Origin: a virus | Taxonomy: Duplodnaviria; Caudoviricetes | Strand: one strand, 5' to 3' | Length of the DNA stretch: 56,660 bases | IMG/VR virus record: IMGVR_UViG_3300020396_000007 | Span: 1-56,660 of that record | Shown: positions 667 to 27,995 of the stretch, in pieces | How positions within the stretch are numbered: the stretch's first letter is position 1 | Layout: every line of letters starts with the position of its first letter | Position numbers and translations under genes: made by a program | The notes under the pieces: generated by a model | Told to the model about the DNA's origin: nothing | Database searches by the model: none | The model's input: only the letters and a program-made list of their open reading frames with translations

Positions 667-2289
667 ATGTCAGTTACTATCAGAAACCTCATACATAAAC
701 ACAACGCTCGTGATGCACAGCGTATCCTGAGTAACATCATTCGTAAACTCGTAGCAGACGAGGCATGGAAGCCTGTCATCGAGGCGGCGAAGCGTTCGCT
801 CCTCATCAACACCACGCATACTAACTCACGTACAATGAAGTCGGTGAGCATATCACAAATCCTTGACCGTATGTCAGCCCATGCCAATGCTCTGCTTCTC
901 GTAGATGTTTGGCTTGATCGTGGTTTAACCTCAGACAAAGCTCTATGGAAGCTTGTACAGTATTTCGAGGGCGATGATGCTTACGTAGACAGCATAACCT
1001 GCTGGCCGTACGCTCCTAGCCAAGAAGAAATAGACCTCGCCTTGGATCACGACATCACTGACCAACTTGACCTGTCTGATGACGTAGAACCTGTTCAAGA
1101 CGAAGCTACACATAAGACTGCTGATACTCCAACTTCCCCTACTGCGTACGATGTTTCGGCCGACATTGCGGTGGCTGCCAACGTGCTGCTCAAGGCTGCC
1201 ACGGGCGGCGAGATGGACGACTTGCAAAAGCTACTCGATGAAGTCGTAGACTTGCGTAACCGTCCGACCTCCATACTGCCGCCCAAGGTACAAGCGGACG
1301 GTGATATACCAGAAGGTACGCCTGTTCGTGTCAATGCGCTCGACGTATTCTCTGACCGCGATACGTCACCTATGAGTAAGGAAGAGCGTAAGCTGATGAA
1401 CATGGACATCACTACTTACGTCTGGGACGGTGTTCACCCATTAGTTCCCGCGAAAGATCCTAACTACATCTTCAACTGGTCGCACGTTTCAGACGTCCTT
1501 TGGGCTATCGAGAACGGTGACAACTCGTGGCTGACTGGATCAACAGGTACGGGAAAATCTACGTTAGCCGAACAGATCGCTTCGTGGACAGGTCGTATGA
1601 TCGTACGTGTGAACATGGATAGTGCGATTGAACGCCCCGATTTCGTCGGTGCAATGGCGCTCGTGTCCAATGAGGACGGATCACAAGTCACCATGTTCAA
1701 GGATGGTGTGTTGCCGAGGGCCATGCAGTTGCCGTGCATCTTGCTTCTTGACGAGTACGATGCCGTACGTCCCGACATTGCGTACGTTATGCAGCCAGTC
1801 TTGGAGGGTGCCCCTCTGCGGCTCTTAGAAGACGGTGGCCGTATGGTTCACCCACATGCTGACTTCCATATCATTGCGACAGCCAACACGACAGGCACTG
1901 GTGATAGCTCTGGTATGTATGCGGCGGCGGTCAAGGTTCAATCACGCGCACAGATCAACAGGTTCAGCGTGTTCATCAAGGTGGACTACATGGAAACCCA
2001 CCGTGAGATGGATCTTATTAAAAAGTTCGCGCCCGATGTGTCACAGCGAGCGATGGGTTTGCTACAGCAGTTCATCGAATACTATCGGAAGGGCTTTACC
2101 GATGGGACGATTGCTACACCTATCTCTCCACGTAATACGATCACGCTTGGTCGGTACTTGAATACGTTCGAGGGCAAGATCGGTACGAAAACAGCGCTCA
2201 AACGTGCGCTTCAAATGAACGTCATGCTCACGATTGACGAACAGGACGCCATTGCCGTGACAGGCATCATGGATCGTGTGTGTGCGTAA
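667..2289 (+). CDS. cobS: CobS-like / MoxR-family AAA+ ATPase with ~210-aa N-terminal extension
   Basis: Walker A GSTGTGKS, Walker B LLLDEYD, ATANT sensor, FKDGVLP and SPR motifs; AGGAG SD; adjacent to a vWA gene. Confidence 0.88.
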   Translation: MSVTIRNLIHKHNARDAQRILSNIIRKLVADEAWKPVIEAAKRSLLINTTHTNSRTMKSVSISQILDRMSAHANALLLVDVWLDRGLTSDKALWKLVQYFEGDDAYVDSITCWPYAPSQEEIDLALDHDITDQLDLSDDVEPVQDEATHKTADTPTSPTAYDVSADIAVAANVLLKAATGGEMDDLQKLLDEVVDLRNRPTSILPPKVQADGDIPEGTPVRVNALDVFSDRDTSPMSKEERKLMNMDITTYVWDGVHPLVPAKDPNYIFNWSHVSDVLWAIENGDNSWLTGSTGTGKSTLAEQIASWTGRMIVRVNMDSAIERPDFVGAMALVSNEDGSQVTMFKDGVLPRAMQLPCILLLDEYDAVRPDIAYVMQPVLEGAPLRLLEDGGRMVHPHADFHIIATANTTGTGDSSGMYAAAVKVQSRAQINRFSVFIKVDYMETHREMDLIKKFAPDVSQRAMGLLQQFIEYYRKGFTDGTIATPISPRNTITLGRYLNTFEGKIGTKTALKRALQMNVMLTIDEQDAIAVTGIMDRVCA

Positions 2290-2323
2290 TCAATCTTCAA
2301 TCTCAAACAAAAGGAACATGTAA

Positions 2324-4432
2324 ATGTTTACTCAAACTTCAGTCGCAGGACTTCAAACTGAATTGACTAAGCTATCTAAAATTATGGGTGCCGCACATGT
2401 ACGTACCACCTTCATGGGTGACGGTGCGTACACTGATGGCAACATCATCAACGTGCCGCATATGGATGTGACTGCGGAGCTTGACCCAGAGGATCAAGCC
2501 GCAATGCGAGGCTATCACATCCATGAGACAAGCCACGTAACCGATACGGACATGACGATACTGCAACGTAGAACCGTAAAGGGTAAGCCGATCAAGCGCA
2601 TCTGGAACGCGTCCGAAGATGTGTATGTGGAGCGTAAGGCTATCGAGAAGTACGAGGGTGCCAAGCGTAGTATCCAAGCGACCACTGAGAAAGTTCTCGC
2701 AAAAGAAAACAAGTTCTGGAAAGAAAATCCCTTACGTCAAGCCGCTCGGATCACGAGATGGTGGGATGAGATACCGTACGCGGCGTTGCAACAAGGCCGC
2801 AAGAACATGGGGTACGATAGCGAAGCGCTCGATGAATACCTACAAGGTCTACCCAAGCAGTTGAGACGCGAGGCAAGGAAGTACGCCAAGCGTATGGTCG
2901 CCGCTGAAAATTCAGAGCAAGCCCTGCGGGTTGCAAGGGCCATGCAAAAACGCATGAAAAAGTATGGCGATGAGTACGACACCCCCGAAGAGCCGCCTTG
3001 CGATGGCGATGACGGCGAGCAACCTAACGATGGCGATACCCAACAGACAGAGCAGGAGACTAACGAGGGTATCGAAGGGGAGAACGACGACATCGAGGAC
3101 GAAGAAGGTAACACCGATGGCGAGGGTGACGACGAAGGTGACGACGAAGGTACGGGAGATACCGACGAAAGCGACGACGACGACGACGACTTAGACGACC
3201 ACACCGATGGTGACGACGGAGACGGAGACGGCGACTTTCCCGACGACGGAGACATCGACGGGGATCTTGGATGCGACGACGACGACGACGGAGATGGTAC
3301 GCAAGGTACGGGAGATGACCAGGAAGAAGATACTCCCAGGGACGACACCCAGGATGATGGTACGCAAGAGGCCAAGGGTTTCGATCTCGAAGAGGCAGAG
3401 AAACGCGCCGACGAAGCGATGAATGATACATTCGGCAAGTACAACTCAGGCGATCTCGAAGTTAAGTCAGAGTTCAGCAACGTGTTCTACCATCACAATG
3501 AGTATTGGGCGTGGCAAAAAGTCGTGGCTGAAGAAATCATACTGCCGATGTCTAAGGACATGAACCGTACCGACGAAGCGCGAAGTATTGCAAGGCAGAT
3601 CCATAGGCAAATCAATGATTGGTGTAGGTCAATGGAGATTGATCGAACCGAAGTCCTTCACGAAATTCAAAAGAATACCAAGCGTCATATGCCTAGCGAT
3701 CTTAACGCCTACTCAGCAAGACTTGCGCGTATGTTGTTGTCGCAGGAAGAGAGACGCAATGAGGGTGGCTTCAGCTCTGGTCGCATTGATCGGCGGCGTC
3801 TCGCTTCTGTTGCGGCTGGCAATGAAAACGTGTTCGCACGTCCACAGATAATGAAGACAAGCGAGACGCGCATACTCATTGCGATTGATGGCTCATCTTC
3901 CATGAATGATAGATCCACGCGTATCGCTGTGGATGCAGTGAACACATGCCTTGGTCGAGCTAACGTAAGGTTCGACATAGCGGAATGGGGTGGCATGGAT
4001 TGGAGCCATGTCATTGATGGCCTCGATGCAGGTGCCAACTTCACGGTACACAAGAAAGCGAATGAGCATTGGAGAAAGATAGATAAGGCTTTCGACTTCT
4101 GCCCTCAGTCAAGTGACACACCTTCACACACTGGAATGTTGACGTGCGCCAAGTACATGAGCGCATGGACTGAGCCACGCAAGATACTCTTGTTTCTGAC
4201 TGACGGTATGCCAAACGGCTACAATCATGGTGAGTGCGAGATGATCAAGCAACTGACAGTCGTGATGGAACAGAACGGCATGGAAGTGTACGGCGTAGGT
4301 ATCGACGTAGATTTCCCGATGGAAAATTCATTCAACAAGTACGTCGAGTGTAACTTCGACAGCCTTGGTGCAACGATGCTTGGTGGCTTGGAAAAGTTAC
4401 TGATCGAGAAAGGTCACGCTCATGGGTCGTGA
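2324..4432 (+). CDS. cobT: CobT-like protein: N-terminal HExxH domain, acidic linker, C-terminal vWA domain
   Basis: AYTDG, HETSH, WNASED; SGRID; MIDAS DGSSSM and LTDG; long D/E/G-rich linker. Confidence 0.85.
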   Translation: MFTQTSVAGLQTELTKLSKIMGAAHVRTTFMGDGAYTDGNIINVPHMDVTAELDPEDQAAMRGYHIHETSHVTDTDMTILQRRTVKGKPIKRIWNASEDVYVERKAIEKYEGAKRSIQATTEKVLAKENKFWKENPLRQAARITRWWDEIPYAALQQGRKNMGYDSEALDEYLQGLPKQLRREARKYAKRMVAAENSEQALRVARAMQKRMKKYGDEYDTPEEPPCDGDDGEQPNDGDTQQTEQETNEGIEGENDDIEDEEGNTDGEGDDEGDDEGTGDTDESDDDDDDLDDHTDGDDGDGDGDFPDDGDIDGDLGCDDDDDGDGTQGTGDDQEEDTPRDDTQDDGTQEAKGFDLEEAEKRADEAMNDTFGKYNSGDLEVKSEFSNVFYHHNEYWAWQKVVAEEIILPMSKDMNRTDEARSIARQIHRQINDWCRSMEIDRTEVLHEIQKNTKRHMPSDLNAYSARLARMLLSQEERRNEGGFSSGRIDRRRLASVAAGNENVFARPQIMKTSETRILIAIDGSSSMNDRSTRIAVDAVNTCLGRANVRFDIAEWGGMDWSHVIDGLDAGANFTVHKKANEHWRKIDKAFDFCPQSSDTPSHTGMLTCAKYMSAWTEPRKILLFLTDGMPNGYNHGECEMIKQLTVVMEQNGMEVYGVGIDVDFPMENSFNKYVECNFDSLGATMLGGLEKLLIEKGHAHGS

Positions 4433-5920: not shown

Positions 5921-6622
5921 TTACAAAACTATAGTTGGGTCAACTTGTTCGGGTCTCACAGCATACACTATGGAGCTATACGGTTTACCGTCAGCGTTGT
6001 AAGTTGTGTACTTAGCTTCCACCAGTTTACCATTCTTTAGTAGCGTGACGCACTTGGAAGCAATCTTTTGATAGCACAAAGTTTGTATCTCATTCATGTC
6101 CTTGTATCGCACGGATGTGACCGAGAGTATTGACCAGAGTATATCCACGAAGCCCATCGGCTCTACTCGTAAGGTCTCTAGTATCATGTCAGACAACTCA
6201 CCCTCACCCATGTTTAGTAAAATGCTATACAAATGATCTCTTGCTTCGCGCAAACTAGGTGTGGCTGGTACAGAATTGACAACCTGTTTCGGGGTGTCGG
6301 GTGTGACAACTTCCTCAATGACGTCTTCATCATAGATGTAATCTACCATTGCCGAAGCAGGTATTACCTCATCTTCTTCATCTACTAGACTGCTGTCTTG
6401 GTGATCAGCGTCGAGCTTGAGGGCGATATACTCTGCTGTGTCAAGCTGTTCTGCGTAGTTCTGTTTGACGGTGGCAAAGTAAACGTCTCCGATCTGGATG
6501 TTCATGTACGTTGCCATGTTGACTGGTAAGTAACACGTCTTACCACATTTTGTTTTGCTGTATGCGCCACCTGCTCGTGTCACATACGTAACTTCAATAA
6601 CTTTAGTTGATGTATTCTTCAT
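5921..6622 (-). CDS. Hypothetical protein (233 aa) next to attP
   Basis: Long ORF; beta-rich N-terminus, acidic linker, helical C-terminus; no family recognised. Confidence 0.75.
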   Translation of the reverse strand: MKNTSTKVIEVTYVTRAGGAYSKTKCGKTCYLPVNMATYMNIQIGDVYFATVKQNYAEQLDTAEYIALKLDADHQDSSLVDEEDEVIPASAMVDYIYDEDVIEEVVTPDTPKQVVNSVPATPSLREARDHLYSILLNMGEGELSDMILETLRVEPMGFVDILWSILSVTSVRYKDMNEIQTLCYQKIASKCVTLLKNGKLVEAKYTTYNADGKPYSSIVYAVRPEQVDPTIVL

Positions 6623-6741
6623 TAGTAAACCCGTTCATATTGATGCAAACCTTACGTTTACGGTGAGGTTAAACCCATAAGACGTGACGTCTTTGGGGGT
6701 ATGAACAGACAACGAAAGAAATGTTTAGGGGGGGAGATGTA

Positions 6742-6782
6742 CCTTAGCAGGGGAGCGCCTTCGTCCACTCGGCCACGTCTCC
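6742..6782 (-). tRNA. 5' half of tRNA-Ser(GCU), 41 nt; not a complete tRNA
   Basis: GGAGACG TG GCC GAGTGGACGAA GGC G CTCCC CT-GCT-AA GG = acceptor 5' strand, D arm, anticodon arm; pairing breaks 2 nt past the anticodon loop; no variable arm, T arm or 3' acceptor strand. Confidence 0.9.
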
Positions 6783-6789
6783 GTGGGCG

Positions 6790-6818
6790 GTGATAGCGAT
6801 TACGCTTTTGATCTGCAA
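6790..6818 (-). promoter_or_regulatory. Stable-RNA-style promoter in front of the tRNA half
   Basis: TTGCAG-N17-TATCAC then GC-rich CGCCCAC, then tRNA G1. Confidence 0.65.
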
Positions 6819-6875
6819 GTAGTATTTCCATATTTCCCAAGACATCTTTCGTTGTCTGATTTAGTTGTGTGGCAG

Positions 6876-7889
6876 TCACTCCAAAGAGAGAACAGCCGAT
6901 AGATGATCCTCAAATGTCGTGTTCATGTAGCGCATGACCATCTTCAGATCAGAGTGCCCAAGTAAATCAGCGATCACCTTGGGTGGAGTTCCGTTACGCG
7001 CAAGCCGCGTAGCGAATGTGTGGCGAAGAGCATAGGGTGTCTTCGATATTCTTAAAGCGTCAGTTACCTTACGCCAGTGATAGCCAAGTTGCTTGTTCGT
7101 CTCAAAGGTTTTTCCTTCAAGCAAGAACGCAAAGTTGTGCGGCGGTGGATCACTACGTGGAATTGTAGCGAGTGCCTTTGCGTTGAGCGGTATCCGTCTT
7201 TCGCGGAGTTCGCCGCCAGCGCCTTTGTAACATCCGACCACGACTGTATTGTTTGTAAAGTCTACGTTGTCATAAGATAACGTCATAGCTTCTATTGGTC
7301 GTGCGCCAGTGTGTAATAAAAAGTTACACATTCGTCGGATGTCTGGGTGCAACTCAGGAAAGATACTATCAATCTCTTCTTGAGAAAACGTATCAGTCTT
7401 GGGCGTACCGTCCTTTGGCTTCTTTAACTTTATGGTGTCGCGGAGTTTCAGATGCGCGGCATAATTTAATACGGCTTGGAGTTGATTTAAGTCACGGCGT
7501 ATCGTGGCATTTGAATTGCCTTTGTTGACGTGCTTCTCTTCAACGTATTCCTCGACATCATTTTCGTCTAACTTATTGATCTGGTACTCACCAAAGTAAT
7601 CCGAAAGACGAAGAACATAATCTATCGTAGACTTAGATGCACCAGTGTAAGGTGACTTTAGGTAACGCCGAGCTACCGATTTAAATTTATTCTGAGCGCC
7701 GTGACCTCGAAAACCCACACCAATCTTTATTTTACCAGACAACACATCAGCTTCAAACTCTATGCAAAGTTGCCTTGCATATGCGTAATCTCTGGTGCCA
7801 AGGGAGTGACGAACGCGCAGACCGTTGTAACTTCCAGCGGCTTGGTACGAGTGACCACCACTACGTTTTTTTACTTTGAATAAGGGCAT
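6876..7889 (-). CDS. int: Tyrosine recombinase / integrase
   Basis: TGARPIE (catalytic R), YALRHTFAT, LLGHSD..MV.RY (catalytic Y); likely start MPLFKV at 7889 (ORF track 7958). Confidence 0.95.
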   Translation of the reverse strand: MPLFKVKKRSGGHSYQAAGSYNGLRVRHSLGTRDYAYARQLCIEFEADVLSGKIKIGVGFRGHGAQNKFKSVARRYLKSPYTGASKSTIDYVLRLSDYFGEYQINKLDENDVEEYVEEKHVNKGNSNATIRRDLNQLQAVLNYAAHLKLRDTIKLKKPKDGTPKTDTFSQEEIDSIFPELHPDIRRMCNFLLHTGARPIEAMTLSYDNVDFTNNTVVVGCYKGAGGELRERRIPLNAKALATIPRSDPPPHNFAFLLEGKTFETNKQLGYHWRKVTDALRISKTPYALRHTFATRLARNGTPPKVIADLLGHSDLKMVMRYMNTTFEDHLSAVLSLE

Positions 7890-7891
7890 CT

Positions 7892-8116
7892 TTATACCCC
7901 ATTCCTTTTTGGCGGGGCAATCGGGGAGAAAGGTAAATGACGCTGTTCTCCAACCCAATTGCTAATTGTCTTTACTCGGACGCAAGCTTTTAACCGCGTC
8001 TTTCTCCGCATCATAATCCCGAAGAGGTTATCCATTTTCCATACATCAGTCCACAAATACAATCCGTGGTGGCCTGTCGTGTAGGCCAAGGAATTTCTTG
8101 TTGGTCCTGCATACAT
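7892..8116 (-). CDS. Possible small protein between the LuxR-type gene and int
   Basis: TAATG coupling with AAGGA SD and fills the gap exactly; no recognisable motif. Confidence 0.35.
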   Translation of the reverse strand: MYAGPTRNSLAYTTGHHGLYLWTDVWKMDNLFGIMMRRKTRLKACVRVKTISNWVGEQRHLPFSPIAPPKRNGV

Positions 8117-8580
8117 TATTTAATTCCTTCCTGTGATATAGGTGTCGTTAAATAAATTGCGGCGTGTGGATCTGGCTCACCTTTCTTTAGGTTGTGCCCC
8201 CAATCAATCGGCAACCCACCGCTTGATCGTTGGTAGTCCTCTGGTGTGATCCTGTCCATTATATCACGCATCACCATTGCGGCTTGGCCTCTTGTTTTTG
8301 TGCCAACCTTTTTACATACGGCGCGGACGTGTAGCTTTACCGTATTTTCACCTATATTTAAGATGTAAGCGATGTCTTTATTCGCCCACCCTTCGATCAG
8401 CAGTTGTGCTGTAACGTGTTGCTTCTCTGTCATTGAGCGGCATAGGGCAAGTTCCGAGGGTGATACAGATTGAGTAATTTGTTGTGGGGAATTGGGGTTG
8501 TTCGACAAAAGAATGTTTGTAATGATGTCGAGCTTTGCTTCAAGTCGAGCAATATCATAACGAAGATTTGTATTAGACAT
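8116..8580 (-). CDS. LuxR/GerE-type HTH transcriptional regulator
   Basis: MTEKQ..AQLLIEGWANKDIAYILNIGENTVKLHVRAVCKKVG...R is a canonical GerE HTH; N-terminal short coiled coil; start uncertain (8580 or 8676). Confidence 0.88.
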   Translation of the reverse strand: MSNTNLRYDIARLEAKLDIITNILLSNNPNSPQQITQSVSPSELALCRSMTEKQHVTAQLLIEGWANKDIAYILNIGENTVKLHVRAVCKKVGTKTRGQAAMVMRDIMDRITPEDYQRSSGGLPIDWGHNLKKGEPDPHAAIYLTTPISQEGIK

Positions 8581-8641
8581 GAGGTCATGTTGATCCTTGA
8601 TAGTTGAGTTTGATAAAGCAGTAGATGTGTCTACTACCTCC

Positions 8642-8688
8642 CCAATGTAGTGTCTATGATACACCATTGTCAACACCTTTCGTTGTCT
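8642..8688 (-). promoter_or_regulatory. Promoter/operator region of the LuxR-int unit
   Basis: TTGACA-N18-TACATT with the 19-bp operator (8647-8665) across the spacer and a 12-bp copy of the attP repeat (8677-8688) just upstream. Confidence 0.6.
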
Positions 8689-18187: not shown

Positions 18188-18485
18188 GCTACGAGATCTG
18201 CCGCTAGAAGAAGGTAAGCGGTTGATTAATACTGATCGAAACAAAGAGTACGGTGAGCCGTACGAAAACTTCTCTGACATTGCTGCAATGATTTCAGCTA
18301 TACTTCGAGGCATCTTAAAAGATGGTGAGCGCGTACGTGTTGAGCATGTCGCAATGATAATGATTATCGTCAAGCTTTCGCGTATGACTACATCACCCGA
18401 CAAGTTTGATAGTTGGGCAGATATAGCTGGCTACGTTGGTACGGGATGGGAAGCGATTGCGGTGGATCGCAAACTAGATACCTAG
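18180..18485 (+). CDS. DUF6378-like protein (putative nucleotide-metabolism helical domain)
   Basis: DRNKEYG.P..NF..IA, VAMIMIIVKLSR, DSWADIAGY. Confidence 0.8.
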   Translation: MSKLRDLPLEEGKRLINTDRNKEYGEPYENFSDIAAMISAILRGILKDGERVRVEHVAMIMIIVKLSRMTTSPDKFDSWADIAGYVGTGWEAIAVDRKLDT

Positions 18486-21400
18486 AAGCTACCACCAAAA
18501 CCGCCACCGAAACTACCGCCACCTGATTGGCCGCTCTTACCACGAGTGCCAGCGACAGCATCAACGATGCCTTCTTTGGCCCATGATACGCCACCCAACA
18601 CTGGTACACGCCCGACAATTTCACGCATCGCTGCGCGTCTTTCTCCGTTAGCTGGCTTATCGTCCCACCAAGAACGACCACCTTGCAACACAACTGTTGC
18701 ATCATTGAAGAGACCCACCGTTGGGCCACCAATAGTTTCAAGTGTCCTTTGCGTTCCGTACGCACCGTTATCAGATTGAGACGCTATGTCGTACGCCAAT
18801 TCTCCAATGAGACCCAATCCCCCAAGAGCAACCATACCATCGAAGTACCAACCCATAAGCATATCGAGGTCTTCGTTTTCTTCAAAGGCTGTTGTGAGTG
18901 TATCGGACAACCTACGTTCACGAAGTCCAAACTCTCTGTTGTCCTCACCGCCACGTCCTTGAATGATGTCCTTAGTTCCAACAGCTATTCCACCCATTGC
19001 TGGCCCTGCTACTAGGAGTGCAGCGAGTGGACCAAGGCGGTTGTCAGATTGACCTGCAAAAGCCTTGACGAAGTTGGCCCCACGTTGTGCTGGCGTATCG
19101 CCACGGAAAGCCTCACCAGCCACTGTATTGACCAGTCGGGTCATCATAAGCGGATAAGACTTTAACTGCATTGCTATAGCCCCTAGAGGCGTCTGCCCCC
19201 ACAGAGGTAAGTCGTTAGGGTTAGGCGTGAAGATCATTTGGTTTGTCAGCTTAATCATAGAAGCAGCAAGCTTATTGGCTAGTGGGTGTTCAGCACCAGT
19301 AAAGCGGCTTTCCATAACAAGATCCATGTCTAGGTTCTTATCTTTAACGAACTCAGCGAGACCCTCTTCTTGCAAGATGCGCCGAGCAATCCGACCCGCA
19401 CGAGAGTTAGGACGGTTCCTTAAAACTTTTTGCTGAGACTTGAGGTGTTCGTACGAAACCGAGGCGGCAACGTCTCGCATCATGTCAGTCCAAGGAGTGA
19501 GCAAAGTAGAGTTAAAGAAGCCAGTCATAAACTGTGTACTGTCTACACCATGAGCTACCGTAAGCCTTTGGTGTACTGCATTTTCTGTAGCTGCTCCAAT
19601 ATTTCGGATCATGTCACGATACTCAGGCTCTACTGAAAACTTACGCAATGCCTTGGCGTATGATCCTAAATCACCTGTACGTATCAATGGCAGGATCAAG
19701 TCTCCCAGGCTCGTAAGAGTTGTGAACCCCAGGAGAGTAACAGCGTTTACGCCACGCAACCATTTGGAAGCGTTCTTACCTGAGAACAATCCATGTACGC
19801 CATCAATCGGACGACGCATTGCTGCGTTCATAAAGCCCTGTGCGTGCTTGAGGTTATTATTCGAAGTAAGTTTAGTAAGACCTTCCGTATCACCCAAGGC
19901 ATTAGCTATGGCATTAGCACGTTTGCGGAAGTTGTTACGCAACATTATTGCGTCTGGATTGTCTGATAACTGATCGCCTAGAAGATCCATAATATTGGCT
20001 TCGATCTCCGCAGCAGTCTTGCCGCCTTGCGCCATGTCGATAAGCTCTTTAGCCTTTTGCTCTGACTGGAACTTGTCTTTAATGGGTGCGTAGAAATAGT
20101 TATTGTCAAACGTGTTCTCTTTAACGCCATGATCTGATGCGCCAGAGCGTGCCCATGTCGTAGAGATTATCTTATCACTAGACAGTAACGCCCCTATAAC
20201 TTTACGTGCGTTCATCGGCTGTGCAAGAATAGACATATAGTCGTGATACCCATGCATACCTGCGCCGTACTCAGTCGTAAGGTCAATGCGATGCTCAAGG
20301 TTATCTGAATACTTTGTCATCGAAACGAGCAGATCATTCTCTAAGAACACTGCTAGACTGTCAGGTGTATCAAAGTCAGCAAAGTCAGTGTACTCGTCCA
20401 GCCTGATTACACGATTATAGTCAAGGTGGTCTGCGCTATCGCCAGCTTTATCTGTCATGCGCTTAAAATTCTGCGCGGGGTTTGATAGTACGCCATCTTC
20501 ATCAATGATACGCTGCATCATTCTACGTGCTGATTTGTCTGCTAGTTCTTTAGACCCACCACCGTTTCGCTCTGCCATAAAGTATTTTGACATACGACGC
20601 ATAAACTCTTCGGGATCATTCTCGATCATGTCCTTACGCCAGATCATAGGGAAGTAGTTTTTATCTATGTTACCAACCAGTGCGCCAGCTTCATTAAGAC
20701 GGCCATTAGCTTGATCTAAATAATCACGAGTATGAGTGTAGGCAACCAACTCTTCTTGTGTAAGAGACGAGACTTTGTTCTTGTTTCTAAGTGCGGAGAT
20801 AATGCGTACGTGACTGTTGGGTTGTGACATCCTACGTTTTGGTGAGATACCAACAGCGCCGATTGCGCTTTCTATCATCATTTGCGGGCCAGTCTGGAAG
20901 TACCGCTTTATGACGCCACCACTGTCAGGAAGACCACGAAGCATCTTGGTGAGAGGAATTAAGAACTTACCCATCTGTGCGTTCGTACGCTCGAAGTGAC
21001 CGCCGCTGCCGTCTTCAGGTTCGAAGAAGCCCGCAAGCTTTCGCATACCAGACCTAGCCATAATTTTAGCGTTCGTACGTATGGGGTTAAACAAGCCACA
21101 CTTGCGTATCTCGGCTGCTGCATCTGACGGCATACCCCGCCCGCGTGCTACAGAGATCATAGCTTCTAGTGTACGTGGGGGTACGCCACCATCTTCGAGT
21201 TGCTGGGCTGCTTGCTTGAAGATACGTAATTCATTCGCACCTTCCATAGCATCGAGCATTGCCCGCCCATTCGCTGAGTTTGTACGTGCGTTTTCTCCCA
21301 GGATAGGAGTTGCGTTCTCAAACACATCGCTTCTTACGCTGCGGATACTGCGTGAGGACAGCATCATCTTGTCGCCACCCAAGGTTATACTTGTAAAGCC

Positions 21401-24400
21401 AGCCTGTTGAAGAGTTCTTTTGAGCTTGCGTTCGCCACCTAAAATCTCACTCAGGGTTCTTACCATCTCTTCTGCTGAATACACCCCGCGTATATCGTCT
21501 ATTGCTTGTGCTTGATTTACGGATGTCTCGGAAGACTTGAGGTGACTTATCAGCGTCTTAACTATAGCGTGCTTACCAGTCATTTTGTTTTCAAACATGG
21601 CTGGCTGTGTATCCCTGATAAATACAGGTGTACTTGTCGTATCTATGTTTGCGCCAATGTCCTCAAGTTCCTTTGATAAGACGTCATCGAGTGTGTACAA
21701 CCGATCAATGTGTGCGAAACTGGTAGACCCGTCTATTTTACCCATGTTTATTTTTGCGCGTACGGCTTGGAGCATATCAACTAAGTCAGTGACTGCTTCA
21801 CGTTTCTCTGCGGGCACAGAAGATATAATTTGAGTACGTGTGTTGGCTACAGTATTGCGAGGGGATACAGATACATAGTTTCCAATCCCAAACGGCCCGT
21901 CAGATACACCGCCTGAGAAATGCGGCACTACCTTGTCACCCGTAAACTCACGTATTGCGTCGTATCCTGGGCGCGTAAACGACGTCGTAACTTCATTAGC
22001 AAAATCTACGGCGTACTCCGCAGGTACTGCTTCGGAGTATCTAGCTTTGGGGCTGCCCTTGAGGACTTGGCTTTCACCAATCATATCACCGAATACAGTT
22101 AAAGGACTAAAGCGCTCGCGGGCTGCTGGATTAGCAATGGTTCCATTAAGAACGTAGGCAAGACCCTCAGTGATTTCGTTTTCCAGATCATCAATAAAGT
22201 CTGCAAACAAGTCAGCGTCTTCGCCATCCATAATCTCAGACATTATTTTAAGCTTCGGCTTGGTGGAGTTTACGTCAACAGCCTCTACCATAACGTCGGA
22301 AAATAATTTCCCTGGGTTCCCACCCAAAATAGACGCTGCTTTGGAAAATACGTTGCGCGTTGAGTGGGGCACTACCGTTGTGGAGTACAGAGCTTCAGAT
22401 ACGAACGATACGGCTTGCGTAATATCTTCGGTACGTGAGAGATTTGTACTTGCTGCGCGTACAATCTTACGAAAGTTCCCGTACGCAGCTACTTCAGGGG
22501 TAGCTGGCAAAGACGTAGCCGACAAGCGTGCCAGTCTTGCCACGATAGTTCTAGCCGTATTTTCTATAGCTGGTGTTCTATGAGTAAAGCCACGCAAGTA
22601 ATCACGGAAAGCACTGTTTGCATTTTGTGGAATACCGTTTTCAAACTGAGTACCGTGATCTTGATACTGTTCTATAGTGAGAGCTTGGCCCACAGCATCG
22701 GATTGCTTACTGGCTTTCTTGTTTGCACGTTGGTTTTTACGCATACGTATCAAGGCTTGAAGTACATTCATTGCCTGTTCTGGCGTAGCGCCAAGACCTT
22801 TAATGACTTCCTTATCAGCGCTCAAGGCCATACCCAAAACAATATCAGGTTGCTTGATGTCTATTGCTCGACCCTTATTGCCGCCACCCTTTGCCTTCTG
22901 CTTGGATTGCAGAGTATTTAGAATTGCTTGCTCATCTTCAGTTAGGTTTATGTCATTAATCTTTGTATTTGTTAGGTGGTACACGCGTTTAGCAAGCTTG
23001 TTACCAAAGTCAGACGGTGCGCCATCTGCTCCTATCTGTCGGCGGTATTCTGCGAGTGCCTCAATAAGACCGTACTTGTTTGTGTCATCACCCTTGGTGC
23101 CCTTAACAACAGTGGTTCCGTTTCGAGCCTTATTGGCCTTGGCTTGTGACGCCATAATCTTATTGAAAGAAGATTTCAGATTGCCACGCTGTACATTCGT
23201 TGCGCGTTTAACAGCTTTGAAGATTTTTTGTTTCTCCATAAGCTCGGCAGTTATTCCACGTTGCTCACGCAAAGATAGTATGCTGTCAGATAGCATTGCT
23301 TCTGGAATGTCACCAAATTCTACGTTGGTGTAGGCTTCATTTATCTCTTCAAGCTTACCTGTAGAATATTTATTGAGGTTCTTTTCCCAAAGCTCTGCAA
23401 TTTCTTTCGCCATCTCAGGACGGAAGACACTGCCACCCATTTCAAAGTCATCGCCTAGTGCGCTGACTGCGTAAGAAGTTCTTACAGTAATTTCGTTGAT
23501 CTGTCTTGATAGCGTACGCATCTTCTGATGACCACCTACGGCTCTGAATACGCCAGAGTAATTAGCAATACGCTGCGCTTCGGAGCTATCAATACGGCCT
23601 TGACGAGAAGCGGCAAAGCTTCTCTCTTTCTGTGTCATTGCCATACCTTGAAAAGCGTTGGCTATTTCACTAGCACCCAAAGCCATCTTCTCAGGATCGT
23701 GCATCTCTGGGTAGCCATCATAACCTTCTAGGAAAAGCTGCCGCCCCATACGAACTTGATCGTACCGTACGCGTAGTGACTTACCCAATGAGGTGTTCGC
23801 ATCCACTGGATTTGTGAACTGTACCCGACGCGCCTCATCCTTGTTAGCTATCATCTTGTTAAAGATAGTCTCCATCTCTGGGTCAACGATATGACGGTTT
23901 GTCATATGACGCCAAAGCTTCTTAACTATATCGGCCGCTCTCTTAAAGAAACTGCCATCTGCGGTCTTAGCCGCAAGTGGCGCTTCGTAGGTGTGATGTG
24001 CCCACAGGGCGAACTGGTTTGCGAATAGCTCACCAGCGTTATGATGTGCGTTTGAAGCGCCCGCAGCTTTATCGCCTTCCCGTACGATAGGTGAGTACGC
24101 ATCAAGTAATGTACCGTCCACCCGATCAGAGACAAAGCCACCATCGAATTTCCCTTTTTCGTCGTAGTATTTACTGACTGATTGCCAGAACTCTAGCTTC
24201 AAATCATACGGCAAAAGGTTTTCATAGGCCCAATGTCCAAGCTCATGCATCACAGTAAAGGACGTATTGATACCAGTCTTTGTACCTAGCTTATCAAGGT
24301 TCTTTTCTTGTAAGAAGATTGCGTTGGCGTCATTACCTTTGACAAGCTTGCCATCAATAATATCCATTGTGTTGTCATCAACGGGCCTGACATTCGCATA

Positions 24401-27400
24401 GTTTGCCGAAAGCCTATTGCTGTAAAGCCCTGCGGTATCTTTGCCAACTAACATAGAAACCGATAGTTCATTGATAGGCTTGAAGATTGGGGCTGATTTA
24501 TCAGGGACGATTGCCCTCATCATACGCTCGATATGAGAGAATGTGCTGTCGTTAAGGTTGCCTGATATTTTGCGTAGCTGTGCCAGGGACGTCTCGATGT
24601 CTACCGTTGGCTTGCGTATGCCATCGGGCGCTTCCTTAGAGAGTACGTGAAGAAACGCAGTAATAGCGTCTAGCCTACGCCCAAACGGGATTTCCATCTC
24701 AGTATCGCTAATGTCCATTACGACACGGAACTGCTGTTCCTCAAGCTGCTGAAGTGTTGTGTAAATGTCAGTAAGAGTTGGCTTTGAGTTAATGAACTCA
24801 TCCATATTTCCTATGAAATTTCCACCGTCAACGAACTTGTGTCCGAGGTACAGTCGATTAACTATCTGTTTGCCTTCGGGTGTAGACGAAAGACGCTTCA
24901 AGTCTATCTCTGTTCCAAACGCATCATCAAGCTCTAGTGGCCCACTTGGACCTTTCGCCTGTGGCTCTGGTGTAACTTCAGCTTGCTTTCCAATACTGTT
25001 GTTTTGGTCAAGTGGCTCGAAGATTACTTTGAGTATATCCCGATCAGTAGCGCTACTTACTTTTTTACCGTTATGCTCAAGTGGCACGTACCCGATATTA
25101 AAGTTTTCTACTTTACCCTTTGGGCCTAGTAGTTTTTGCAAACCGTCGCCGCGCTCAAGTTGCCCTGGCTTTTCTAAGTTGCCAGTATGTGTGAGTACGC
25201 GAGGTTTTTGCTCAAGTGTCTTGGGAAGAAGGATTAGTTTCTTACCGTCTTTTGTTGCTGGTACGTCAGGAAGTTCTTGTACGTCAGTTACGTCATTGCC
25301 GTTACCGTCTACTACCTTAGTCTTTGCAGGTGGATCAACAGACAGGCCACCCTTACGGGCAAGAGCCTTGGCGGTTTCTACATCAAAGTCAAACTCGTCA
25401 AAGTCACCAGTCTTTTCTAGCTTCTTCTCTGCCTGATCTATAAGTTTTTCGAAGTCTTCCTTTACGCTTATGCCTTGCTTGTTGTCATCAATAATTTTGA
25501 GAGAACCAGCCTTTTTTAGTCCACTCGCTTTGAGAGCCATGTCCTCACTGGCATAAACCTTAAACATGCCTCTGTTTGGGCTGTCATTCCTTGGCACCCA
25601 TACGCCATGTACGACTTGGCCTTCAGCAGCGGGGCCACCCCGACCCTTGCCGCCGCCCTTAATCCCAACGACAGGTTCACCAGCACGAGCCGAATAACTG
25701 TAAACGGCTTTCATAATACCCTTTTGTGCATCTGCTGATGCTTCAGCTTCTGCCAAAGACCGCTTCTCGTTTACTCTACGAAAGATGCCTTCGCCTTCGT
25801 TGACAGTGCGATTGTCGCTAGTTGGCACACCGCGCTTAAACCATTTGGATAGTTTGGAGTTTACTTTCTTTTCGCCTGTCTTGGGGTCAATGTATTCTCT
25901 AAACACCCTGCCAGCTAAAGCATCTTTCTCCATTGCCTCGCCTGATTTCGCTGTTCGATCTGCAACCCTGTTAGCAGTAAACTTTAAATCTTCCGTGTTC
26001 GAACGAGTTGCAGCTTCCGCTTTTAATCGGCTGACTTCTTCGGCAGACTTTGCTGCGTCTATTGTGGGTAGAGTGTTTTCCTCAAAGTCTTTGATACGTC
26101 TACGTAGGGCGGCTACTATCTCTTCGTCCATTGGCGTTGCGTCAGCAGCACCCGCTCTTATCAAGCCGTTTAAAACAGACCGCATTTTTTTAGGGGATAA
26201 GCCAGCCTCACGTAAAATGTCGTTAAACATATTGTCGGCAAAGTCACTGATCTCTGATTTTTCTGTGGGTACGTCAGCTTCGATTATTTTTTCGGCTTCG
26301 GTCTTACTAGGGTTTGTAAAGTCAGCTTCGTCTTTGCGTATAGGCGTGCTGTCGTTTCTCGCTATAAGACTTTTTACGTACGCTCCCCTACCACTTTTAA
26401 TAGCAGAGATACGGCCCTCTCTATTAGCTATGAATATCTTAACGGCTTGATTTCCCGCAGCAGTGATCTTGCCATCTTTCATGCCGCCATCTGTTTGACC
26501 AAGTATCTTGGATATATCTTCGTCAGTAATTGGCTTATTGTCAGTACCGTTTTTTGCGTTTGCCTTACTGACTTTGTTTACATGGCTGTCAAAAGCTTTT
26601 TTGGTTTGTTCTGTCCAGCCACCAGCTTTTGTCTTTTTAAACTTAACAGGCTTGGCATCAGGTATTGCGATGATCTCTGGAATTTTTGGCGCTTCGTCAG
26701 CCTGTACTTCCGCTTCAGCTTCATCACCTGTTGTGGTCGCGCTCTCATCTGGATCTTCAGCCTTCGTAGTGTCACCAGCGTCAGCCTCACTTTGTTGTGT
26801 GGCGTTCGTAGCTGTGCCCGTATCGGCTTTAGCTTTAGCTTTTTCTTCAGCAGCCCTAGTAGCCTCTGCTCTCTTTGCTATAATATCTTCGTTGCCTAAA
26901 CGCTCGACGGCCTCGATGTCAGCTTTGTTTATAAGATCGTTAAATTCTCGAAACTTAGTATCGTAACTAGCCTGTATTGCGCCGACGTTACCGCCTTCTT
27001 TTTTTGCTATCTCAAGCTGCTTCGCGGTGTTCTCAAGTTCTGTCTCAAGACCTACAGCCTTGTTGACTGCGGCTTGTACGTCAGCACGTTCTTTCTCAAT
27101 ATCAAGAAGATCATTTTCTGCGTCTATGCGTACGTCATCAGGCAACGTATCATCTTTAGACTGTGCTTGAGCTATACGCTCTAAGTCGGAAAGTTCGCCT
27201 ATACGGCTATCGAGCTTGTCACCCAAAGCCGTACCTTGTTTCCATTCGAGCGCTCTAGCAGCAGGGGCACGCGAAGCTAATGCACCTAATGGCGCACCAA
27301 TAGCACCAGAAAATACGCCTTCTATGGCGGCTGCCGTACCTATTCGAGAGGCATCGTACTGATCACGTAGACCTTGCTGCATTTGACGGGATTGCTGTAG

Positions 27401-27934: not shown

Positions 27935-27995
27935 CGGGTACTCCATTTAACCTGATCTGGTCAGACTAAATAAAAGTACCCCTCTCAGTCGTCCT

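Follow-up and report, generated by a model that had tools for sequence, protein, structure and literature searches.

A probable phage attachment site carrying the 5' half of host tRNA-Ser(GCU) and a putative promoter

Why would a phage carry the first half of a bacterial tRNA gene directly behind its integrase gene, and how would that tRNA be expressed once the phage has integrated? The question is raised by the viral record IMGVR_UViG_3300020396_000007 (Duplodnaviria; Caudoviricetes), whose 56,660 nucleotides were analyzed as a whole and are called the window here. In the portions of the literature drawn on for this comparison, the typical attP of tRNA-targeting elements carries the tRNA gene's 3' half, and the rebuilt gene keeps its own promoter. 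An initial annotation of the window had proposed instead an attP with the 5' half of tRNA-Ser(GCU), preceded by a promoter of its own. The reading favored here, with a probability of roughly 0.82, is that positions 6706-6858 of the window constitute an attP with a 5'-half core and that integration rebuilds the tRNA under a phage promoter-like element. The integrase gene (int), the hexamers, the tRNA piece and a 233-aa open reading frame (ORF) all lie on the minus strand, and the features are arranged as follows.

6876..7958, minus strand: tyrosine integrase gene (int); longest ORF 7958..6876, 360 aa, TTG start
6845..6858, minus strand: candidate arm-type Int site on the P side, CAGACAACGAAAGA; left arm of a perfect 14-nt inverted repeat
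6813..6818, minus strand: -35-like hexamer TTGCAG, at -36 to -31 relative to tRNA G1
6790..6795, minus strand: -10-like hexamer TATCAC, at -13 to -8 relative to tRNA G1
6742..6782, minus strand: attP core; exact match in seven genome contigs, six of them with complete tRNA-Ser(gct) genes
6706..6719, minus strand: candidate arm-type Int site on the P' side, TCTTTCGTTGTCTG; right arm of the same 14-nt inverted repeat
6698..6674 and about 6661..6645, minus strand: two hairpins (inverted repeat I2) between the P' arm and the 233-aa gene
5921..6622, minus strand: 233-aa gene, the first gene past attP, co-oriented with int and the tRNA piece

The core, its host and the integrase

Read on the minus strand, positions 6782..6742 are identical, base for base, to nucleotides 1-41 of the host tRNA-Ser(GCU) and lie 93 nt past the int stop. 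As the initial annotation had described, the piece runs from G1 of the tRNA to just past the anticodon loop: it holds the 5' strand of the acceptor stem, the D arm, the 5' strand of the anticodon stem, the anticodon loop CTGCTAA and two further nucleotides. It starts at nucleotide 1 of the tRNA and ends inside the gene, the property by which elements that replace the 5' part of their target are recognized. The exact 41-mer was found in seven bacterial genome contigs, belonging to Planktomarina MAGs, Rhodobacteraceae IMCC1909 and Yoonia tamlensis, a match far above chance. In six of these contigs it forms the start of a 90-nt tRNA-Ser(gct) called by ARAGORN, and in the seventh the tRNA is cut by the contig end. 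A BLAST comparison of the host tRNA with the whole window matched nucleotides 1-41 alone (100% identity, E 1e-18), the 3' half being absent from the entire window; ARAGORN called no tRNA in the window, and Rfam gave no tRNA match at 6500-7000 with E-values up to 10.

The 41-mer makes the host assignment direct. The host search that had been suggested with the annotation points to Planktomarina-type Rhodobacteraceae, and the lack of any matching host tRNA-Ser, named there as an argument against the proposal, is contradicted by six complete genes. As part of the overall attP reading, the window is taken to represent a temperate marine phage whose host is a member of this group. In all five host genomes checked, tRNA-Ser(GCU) is encoded by a single copy. 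By established knowledge, this tRNA is the sole decoder of AGY codons, so a rebuilt gene must be expressed.

The int product belongs to the tyrosine recombinase family by its match to PF00589 (73.4 bits at a cut-off of 27.1, E 2.4e-20) and also matches the integrase group phrog_1 (E 3e-53). The catalytic set of tyrosine recombinases is R..H-x-x-R..Y; R220, R312, H313, H335 and Y344 are invariant in an alignment with 11 relatives (A3). Residue M24 is invariant in the same alignment, the ORFs of most relatives (336-340 aa) begin there, and the gene likely starts at this ATG (7889). Its position directly upstream of the tRNA piece, noted in the annotation, was confirmed. A repeat search revealed the inverted repeat I1, whose arms are 100% complementary, 125 nt apart and bracket the core; an equivalent pair, GACACCGAAAGTTA and TAACTTTCGGTGTT, is kept in relatives, and Int may well bind at these arms. 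Like a lambda-type attP, the locus lies beside int and shares a 41-nt block of identity with the chromosomal tRNA-Ser(GCU). A 74-aa ORF upstream of int, a candidate for the excisionase, had no match in Pfam or PHROG.

Relatives and their junctions with host DNA

Of 28 viral contigs whose integrase is homologous (43-78% identity), 26 repeat this layout; the two exceptions are L018, which is cut by the contig end, and L039, which has no tRNA piece. In these 26 contigs a 39-nt piece, from tRNA nucleotide 1 to the end of the anticodon loop, lies about 100 nt past int and derives from tRNA-Ser(GCU) in 23 cases and from tRNA-Arg(CCU) in three. The acceptor-stem letters differ by lineage (GGAGACG, GGAGATG, GGAAACG or GGAGCTG), and the pieces of relatives always end 1-4 nt past the anticodon loop. 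Of 109 clade sequences examined, whose counts are not independent because the two source collections overlap, 55 have a Ser(GCU) 5' piece in attP form and 17 an Arg(CCU) 5' piece. All eight viral contigs with the exact 41-mer are attP forms bearing int. A core that holds the tRNA's 5' half, rather than the usual 3' half, is borne out by the host match and by these relatives alike, and the layout is a feature of the family. Among cultured phages, no near DNA match was present in the phage collection, and the best protein matches to int are only about 25% identical.

Relatives also furnished junctions with host DNA. The metagenome set comprised 162 relatives, from which 80 loci were kept; in five of the latter (L071, L072, L074, L075 and L106), a complete tRNA-Ser(gct) comes after int in the same orientation. 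Their integrases are 70-76% identical to that of the window. Upstream of the tRNA they have the phage P arm and the promoter-like region, while the tRNA and the 49 nt that follow it are 98.6% identical to a Planktomarina MAG locus (L002), and the genes that come next, both of cellular type, encode a PhyH dioxygenase and a short-chain dehydrogenase. A complete tRNA with element DNA upstream is the expected product of integration at such a site, and this attR structure is visible in the lysogens of the relatives. The rebuilt tRNA gene that the annotation had proposed is seen, in relatives, behind a phage upstream region, and the promoter activity assigned to this region is suggested by the comparisons given below. 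The annotation had further named prophage boundaries lacking the segment as evidence against its proposal; the junctions of the relatives contain the tRNA-Ser piece. Of the two junction forms to be inspected, attR was recovered in these five contigs of relatives and attL nowhere: the P'-side stretch of L062 had no match among the viral contigs, and none of the loci examined has two copies of the tRNA piece.

Over 1268 nt, the free-phage attP of L062 shares 97% identity with the junction L075; the two are collinear up to the anticodon, past which L062 runs into the phage P' arm and L075 into the tRNA's 3' half. Judged by this comparison, the crossover lies within nucleotides 1-41 of the tRNA. 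The loop reads CTGCGAA in the attP of L062 and CTGCTAA in attR and attB, a mismatch that may be ordinary strain variation. In L106 a truncated host amine-oxidase gene is followed by the last 144 aa of int, a phage-type upstream region and the tRNA; the locus is the remnant of a decayed prophage. It shares its host flank with L071-L075 (PhyH 99.4% identical) and differs from them in the phage-type upstream region, so that the two groups are read as separate integrations. In the five contigs the int gene is damaged, by a 44-nt insertion in L072, L074 and L075 and by truncation in L106; they represent old or locked-in prophages and not fresh integrations.

The phage of the window itself was found, nearly identical, in contigs of 20 sequencing runs from eight studies. 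Four runs were compared at attP, two of which (X9 and X10) have contigs of equal length and depth and may be one data set. Phage contigs stop inside 6742-6783, where the depth climbs from 12-33 to 350-700 because the host tRNA genes share this block, and contigs of host origin part from the phage sequence exactly at 6742 and at 6782-6784. One X18 contig spans the whole attP. The four runs contained the free-phage form and host tRNA genes only; contigs built from 31-letter words break in the 41-nt block, which they cannot bridge, and thus neither support nor oppose integration by this phage. Searches with the Int protein or alignment A3 yielded no match in the five genomes that contain the exact 41-mer or in 401 family, 23 genus and 401 class genomes, empty results that are no proof of absence.

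The promoter-like element and its possible roles

The hexamers TTGCAG and TATCAC are separated by a 17-nt spacer, and a GC-rich stretch, CGCCCAC (6789..6783), lies between the second hexamer and tRNA G1, in agreement with the annotated combination of TTGCAG-N17-TATCAC and a GC-rich discriminator. Among 27 distinct phage-derived upstream regions, TTG at -36 to -34 is present in all, T-13 in 26, and both A-12 and C-8 in all 27; the spacer between the hexamers is not conserved across distant lineages. At the same positions, five of seven host tRNA-Ser genes have TTGTCC and TAAACG. A simple sigma-70 scan with an E. coli-type consensus did not call the element because its second hexamer lacks the final T. 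The comparison with host and relatives, rather than a consensus score, suggests that the element is a putative promoter, and we infer that it would keep the essential tRNA expressed in the lysogen.

On the far side of the core, the annotated 233-aa gene was confirmed as an ORF (6622..5921). Homologues with 27-51% identity begin 93-120 nt past the core in 42 of 53 other loci with an ORF there. The protein matched neither Pfam nor PHROG. Its AlphaFold2 model (mean pLDDT 75.8) predicts an OB/S1-like barrel at the N-terminus and a winged helix at the C-terminus, with an acidic disordered linker between them; a Foldseek search of the PDB gave no match at E <= 0.001, the best being a weak fold match at E 7e-3, and winged-helix families in the Atlas serve as leads only. 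The two hairpins upstream of the gene were predicted in all seven relatives folded (z-scores -1.2 to -3.4). RNAalifold yielded no consensus structure from 12 sequences, and no covariation is claimed. As terminators the hairpins were rejected, neither being followed by a U-tract.

The mechanism proposed from these elements is as follows. The core common to attP and attB would be nucleotides 1-41 of the host's single tRNA-Ser(GCU). Int would probably bind the inverted arm sites on either side of it, with strand exchange most likely in or at the 7-nt anticodon loop, bordered by CCC and GG(G). As it is the 5' half that attP holds, the tRNA would be rebuilt at the int-proximal junction from the phage 5' half and the host 3' half, unchanged in sequence and with only phage DNA upstream, and the host promoter with the host 5' half would be moved some 56 kb away to the other junction. 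This geometry would place the host tRNA promoter before the phage P' arm, the two hairpins and the 233-aa gene. The phage TTGCAG-N17-TATCAC, occupying the position of the host promoter, would keep the essential tRNA expressed in the lysogen, and transcription from it in the free phage would pass through the tRNA piece on the way to the 233-aa gene. With the phage element at the host-promoter position and the host promoter displaced, integration would amount to a reciprocal exchange of two similar promoters.

That this exchange has consequences for both phage and host is a tentative extension, with the odds clearly against it. If true, a tRNA-type promoter would drive the gene for the OB-fold and winged-helix protein via a tRNA-half leader in the free phage, and the lysogen would read the 233-aa gene from the host tRNA-Ser promoter, coupling a nucleic-acid-binding protein of the prophage to the control of stable RNA in the host. 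The only AGY-decoding tRNA of the host would depend on phage DNA, and the int-proximal end of the prophage could not be lost, which would account for remnants like L106, reduced to the int tail, the phage-type upstream region and the tRNA. The design would be common to a whole clade of abundant marine phages with Ser, Arg and possibly Thr targets.

Several other accounts of the locus have to be weighed. The 41-mer might be a functionless scar of host DNA left by faulty excision, with the phage integrating elsewhere; all that speaks for it is that no lysogen of the window's phage was found, and it is hardly credible given the layout in 26 of 28 viral relatives, the lineage-specific variants and two identities of the tRNA, the inverted repeats around the core and junction contigs that fit the attP prediction and already contradict a scar. 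If the attP is accepted, the hexamers need not be a promoter, and the rebuilt tRNA could be transcribed by read-through from int or upstream genes. The stretch from the int stop (6876) to the tRNA piece contained no terminator-like site in a scan, the hexamers fail the E. coli-type consensus, archaeal pTN3-like elements express their tRNA from the integrase promoter according to the part of a review that treats them (PMC8371274), and in the Arg(CCU)-type relatives L110 and L111 the P arm abuts tRNA nucleotide 1, leaving no room for a promoter at the spacing seen in the window. Read-through is nevertheless unlikely, since TTG and TA..C are invariant or nearly so at a fixed distance from tRNA nucleotide 1 in the 27 upstream regions while the spacer varies, the hexamers coincide with the host promoter positions, and L106 has kept the phage-type region upstream of its tRNA even though its int has lost the first two thirds and its own upstream region.

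A different product of the element can also be envisaged. It may have been retained chiefly because it serves the 233-aa gene of the free phage, the tRNA half acting as a leader and the use for the tRNA once integrated being a by-product, an account that is compatible with the favored attP reading. It is a possibility worth keeping in mind, if a minority one: the attP element precedes the 233-aa ATG by about 160 nt on the same strand with no gene between, and the gene is conserved at that position, but the fixed distance of the hexamers to tRNA nucleotide 1 and the copied geometry of the host tRNA promoter are what selection for the tRNA would lead one to expect, two hairpins intervene between core and gene, and the remnant L106 retains the element without the 233-aa gene. 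The initial annotation went further and held that the prophage would gain control over how much AGY-decoding tRNA is supplied; such control might, for instance, throttle or boost host translation. This is quite improbable. The geometry alone favors it, as the sole tRNA-Ser(GCU) gene of lysogens has phage DNA upstream, a candidate Int arm site precedes the window's -35 hexamer by 26 nt, and the distant relatives L102-L104, L122 and L043 have candidate Int arm sites inside the promoter spacer. Yet the phage element mimics the layout of the host promoter, in keeping with neutral restoration, host populations retain remnant prophages whose int is damaged, and neither a regulator site nor a condition-dependent signal was identified. 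The favored reading thus remains an attP whose promoter-like element would restore expression of the rebuilt tRNA.

Known systems and implications

Tyrosine integrases that target tRNA genes have reportedly been classified by Williams (in 2002), including those with crossover at the anticodon loop. The window resembles anticodon-loop integrases in having a tyrosine recombinase beside attP, a tRNA core, candidate arm-type repeats and a tRNA that would be rebuilt, and the 7-nt loop with the symmetry of the flanking stem is again the likely overlap region. Unlike their usual attP, which holds the 3' half, that of the window has nucleotides 1-41, and the rebuilt gene would gain phage DNA upstream.

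The novelty implied by the annotation was overstated, because such arrangements have been reported before. In the Islander collection (Hudson et al., 2015; PMC4383910, Table 1), a displaced 5' tDNA fragment was counted for 159 of the 3919 islands; by definition these elements supply the 5' part of the tRNA gene. The pTN3-like integrases of Thermococcales use the tRNA 5' half as attB (Cossu et al., 2017; Krupovic and Bamford, 2008; both via PMC8371274), and in the part of that review dealing with them, the tRNA gene ends up uninterrupted and is transcribed from the integrase promoter, bacterial cases being rarely encountered. The window phage shares with them the 5' half and, putatively, the restored tRNA and its expression from the element side. 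It differs from these archaeal elements in that a separate sigma-70-like element, at host-promoter spacing, lies between int and the tRNA piece. The dusA-specific integrases, too, replace the 5' end of their target gene by sequence of the element, with putative -35 and -10 sequences upstream before and after integration in the portion of the report concerned (Farrugia et al., 2015; PMC4482086), although their target is a protein-coding gene and not a tRNA gene. A 5'-half attP is a rare, already known arrangement of which the window phage is a further example; a literature search with narrow terms returned no description of a phage-borne promoter for a 5'-replaced bacterial tRNA.

Most methods for locating such sites presuppose a 3' half common to attP and attB. 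Integration sites of the present kind can be missed by searches for 3' halves only, and the uncultured marine phages of this clade, whose integrases are homologous, use the tRNA 5' half. In decayed remnants, the host's single tRNA-Ser(GCU) gene retains the 5' half and upstream region that came from the phage, so the DNA upstream of an essential host gene can permanently become that of a phage. Roseobacters are difficult to engineer, and the integrase with its compact attP is a possible tool for this group.

Among the nearest cultured-phage relatives of int in a tblastn search is the integrase of Pseudomonas phage D3 (about 25% identity). As in the window, this tyrosine integrase is directly followed by an attP, annotated in D3, with tRNA-derived sequence; unlike that of the window, the D3 attP has the usual 3' arrangement: judged by its letters, the T arm, acceptor strand and CCA of a tRNA are present there as reverse complement, opposite to int.

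The tRNA piece in attP and its relatives

The initial annotation had described a 41-nt 5' piece of tRNA-Ser(GCU), preceded by TTGCAG-N17-TATCAC and located directly after the tyrosine integrase gene (int), and this description proved to be base-exact.

Features of the attP region in the window
7958..6876, minus strand: tyrosine integrase gene (PF00589)
6845-6858 and 6706-6719: perfect 14-nt inverted repeat, arms on both sides of the core (P and P' arms, candidate Int arm sites)
6818..6813, minus strand: -35-like hexamer TTGCAG, 17-nt spacer before the next hexamer
6795..6790, minus strand: -10-like hexamer TATCAC, then CGCCCAC, then the tRNA piece
6782..6742, minus strand: tRNA piece (core), 41 nt, beginning 93 nt past the end of int
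6622..5921, minus strand: 233-aa ORF, next after the tRNA piece

The 41-mer takes in the acceptor and anticodon-stem 5' strands with the D arm between them, and ends two bases past the loop CTGCTAA. The search of bacterial genomes suggested for naming the host returned exact matches in seven genome contigs of Planktomarina-type Rhodobacteraceae (Planktomarina MAGs, Rhodobacteraceae IMCC1909 and Yoonia tamlensis); six of these hold a 90-nt tRNA-Ser(gct) that begins with it as nt 1-41, and in the seventh the tRNA is truncated at the contig end. No trace of the tRNA 3' half was detected within the 56,660-bp window, nor any Rfam tRNA match at 6500-7000. With a probability of about 95%, the region is an attP that replaces the 5' half of the host tRNA gene. 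A near copy of the anticodon stem-loop CTCCCCTGCTAA (window 6744-6755, minus strand) follows 19 nt on along that strand as CTCCCCCCCTAA (6725-6736); judged by eye, it is missing in the relatives from an alignment of 12 representatives and may have arisen by chance.

The same layout occurs about 100 nt past int in 26 of 28 viral contigs with a homologous integrase (43-78% identity), the exceptions being L018, where the contig end cuts the locus, and L039, which is devoid of a tRNA piece. Each of the 26 carries a 39-nt piece that starts at tRNA nt 1 and stops where the anticodon loop ends; it is of the Ser(GCU) type in 23 cases and Arg(CCU) in three. Alignment of the 12 representatives revealed a conserved order of int stop, CACACAACT motif, P-side repeat, -35-/-10-like hexamers, tRNA piece, a non-conserved stretch of about 25 bases, inverted P'-side repeat, two hairpins and the start ATG of the gene that follows. 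Acceptor stems vary in sequence by lineage (GGAGACG, GGAGATG, GGAAACG, GGAGCTG), and the tRNA identity of the phage pieces stops 1-4 nt past the anticodon loop without exception. Ser, Arg and Thr pieces share CCC, a 7-nt loop and G or A, a pattern that agrees with the anticodon-loop class of crossover sites as outlined in passages of reviews.

Other arrangements were seen among the relatives. In the metagenome loci L088-L094 (int 46-48% identical), int is followed by a nearly complete tRNA-Thr(GGU)-like sequence, called by ARAGORN in L089, L090, L092, L093 and L094, with the phage P' arm directly after it. The acceptor strands of the L089 piece pair at only four of seven positions (paired by hand), and L088 and L091 have a degenerate 5' part and a retained 3' half; the integrase clade may thus also include 3'-half or mixed attP forms. 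L039, L076-L084 and L108 (int 54-64% identical) have no tRNA piece after int; a shared, conserved stretch containing a long GCTGGC...GCCAGC hairpin takes its place, and they probably target a different site.

Junctions with the host tRNA gene

Metagenomes scanned with 11 aligned integrases as query yielded 162 relatives, from which 80 loci were kept. Five of these (L071, L072, L074, L075 and L106) contain a complete tRNA-Ser(gct) on the int strand, some 100 nt past int (ARAGORN), with a phage-type P arm and promoter-like region upstream. The claimed rebuilding of the host tRNA behind phage DNA was thus seen at the int-proximal junctions of relatives. The tRNA and 49 nt downstream are 98.6% identical to a Planktomarina MAG locus (L002), and the genes past the tRNA are cellular (PhyH dioxygenase, short-chain dehydrogenase). 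L062, the free-phage form of the L075 lineage (97% identity over 1268 nt), is collinear with L075 until the anticodon, where the phage P' arm follows in L062 and the tRNA 3' half in L075; judged by their sequences, L062, L075 and the host locus are a matched attP, attR and attB set. The anticodon loop reads CTGCGAA in L062 versus CTGCTAA in junction and host. If the integrating phage already had this difference, the exchange would have taken place 5' of anticodon position 36; strain variation may just as well account for it.

The junction contigs carry a damaged int, with a 44-nt insertion in L072, L074 and L075, and in L106 only the last 144 residues left, a truncated amine-oxidase gene of the host running into them. 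L106 and L071-L075 are read as two independent integrations at one site from their common host flank (PhyH 99.4% identical) and differing phage-type upstream regions; in either case phage DNA ended up upstream of the tRNA. In these loci the similarity to L002 ends 49 nt past the tRNA, and the next sequence, about 50-100 nt past the tRNA 3' end, has two AGTACCACG repeats, which may stem from a further element 3' of this tRNA or from mere strain variation. No whole-genome lysogen and no integrase match was found in sets of 5, 401, 23 and 401 genomes, blanks that prove nothing. When contigs of four sequencing runs were aligned to the window, phage contigs stopped inside 6742-6783, where depth rises about twenty-fold because the block is common to host tRNA genes; one contig crosses the intact attP, and such contigs cannot reveal hybrid junctions.

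tRNA-Ser(GCU) is the sole reader of AGY codons, so that the rebuilt gene must be expressed from phage-supplied sequence. The gene was single-copy in all five host genomes checked by BLAST; the second match in each (78-82% identity) is presumably another serine isoacceptor.

The promoter-like element and known systems

The "own promoter" attributed to attP held up in part: the hexamers are present and conserved at host spacing, and a sigma-70 scan with an E. coli-type consensus did not call them. Among 27 distinct phage-derived upstream regions, TTG at -36..-34 (counted from tRNA nt 1), A-12 and C-8 occur in all and T-13 in 26, the spacer varying between distant lineages. In five of seven host tRNA-Ser loci the corresponding hexamers are TTGTCC (-36..-31) and TAAACG (-13..-8), and the other two loci show a shift of 1-2 nt; the phage element therefore copies the host promoter geometry, and transcription is predicted to start near tRNA nt 1. 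This conservation suggests that the element quite probably works as a promoter. No terminator lies between int and the element, so read-through from int may contribute. In distant Ser-type loci (L102-L104, L122, L043; int 43-46% identical), the -35 hexamer is TTGACC or the full consensus TTGACA and the spacer contains an arm-repeat-like AGTTGTCAAAG or AGTTGTGAAAG, by which Int binding could affect the element.

In the free phage, the element already points towards the 233-aa gene, some 160 nt further on, so that integration would exchange two similar promoters, of host and phage, rather than add one. The suggested prophage control of tRNA supply is unsupported.

Exceptions to the use of tRNA 3' ends are on record. 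Of the 3919 islands listed by Islander, the displaced tDNA fragment is a 5' one in 159 and a 3' one in 3760 (PMC4383910). The part of a review devoted to pTN3-like archaeal integrases describes use of the tRNA-gene 5' half, with the rebuilt tRNA expressed from the integrase promoter, a situation seldom met in bacteria (PMC8371274). In dusA-specific islands, as an excerpt describes them, the 5' end of a protein-coding gene is replaced and putative promoter hexamers are brought in (PMC4482086). The window attP thus belongs to a rare, already known kind, well documented here. Among cultured phages, one of the nearest relatives of the window int (~25% identity) is the integrase of D3; by our reading, the D3 attP is of the ordinary type and holds a tRNA 3' end in reverse complement. 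Added here are a whole clade of uncultured marine phages that use 5' halves, taken from two or more tRNA identities, together with a separate promoter-like element that copies the host's spacing and host-side remnants retaining the phage-derived upstream region.

The far junction and other phage genes

By geometry, the far junction (attL) would run from the host promoter through host tRNA nt 1-41, P' arm and two hairpins to the 233-aa gene. No attL was found in a viral-contig scan with the L062 P' side, in viral contigs with the 41-mer or in loci checked for two tRNA pieces. Both hairpins are predicted in seven of seven folded sequences, without a U-tract, and RNAalifold gave no consensus structure for the region. 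Homologues of the 233-aa protein (27-51% identity) are encoded at this position in 42 of 53 other loci having an ORF there; it matched no Pfam or PHROG family. In an AlphaFold2 model built from 17 sequences (mean pLDDT 75.8), an N-terminal beta-barrel is joined by a disordered acidic linker (residues 83-120) to a C-terminal helical domain that includes a beta-hairpin. Foldseek gave weak matches (best E 7e-3) to IF1-/Rho-type OB folds and PadR-type winged-helix regulators, and Atlas leads were similar. We take the protein to be nucleic-acid-binding.

The 56,660-bp linear virus record looks complete (100% by CheckV) and has no exact terminal repeat. It encodes primase/helicase, portal protein, lysis genes, CobS/CobT-like proteins and a single 3154-aa ORF (18482-27946, minus strand) of unusual size for a 57-kb phage. 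None of 50,697 deposited phage records is a near DNA match; near-identical DNA occurs in contigs from 20 marine or seawater sequencing runs (8 studies). The gene pair at 667-4432 (plus strand), CobS-like (AAA+ ATPase; phrog_249, 'porphyrin biosynthesis') and CobT-like (phrog_1576; weak PF06213), appears to be auxiliary. A candidate lysogeny regulator, a 186-aa protein carrying a LuxR/GerE-type helix-turn-helix, is encoded two genes upstream of int (8116-8676, minus strand); at 69% DNA identity, its gene recurs ahead of int in lysogen contigs L071, L072 and L074.
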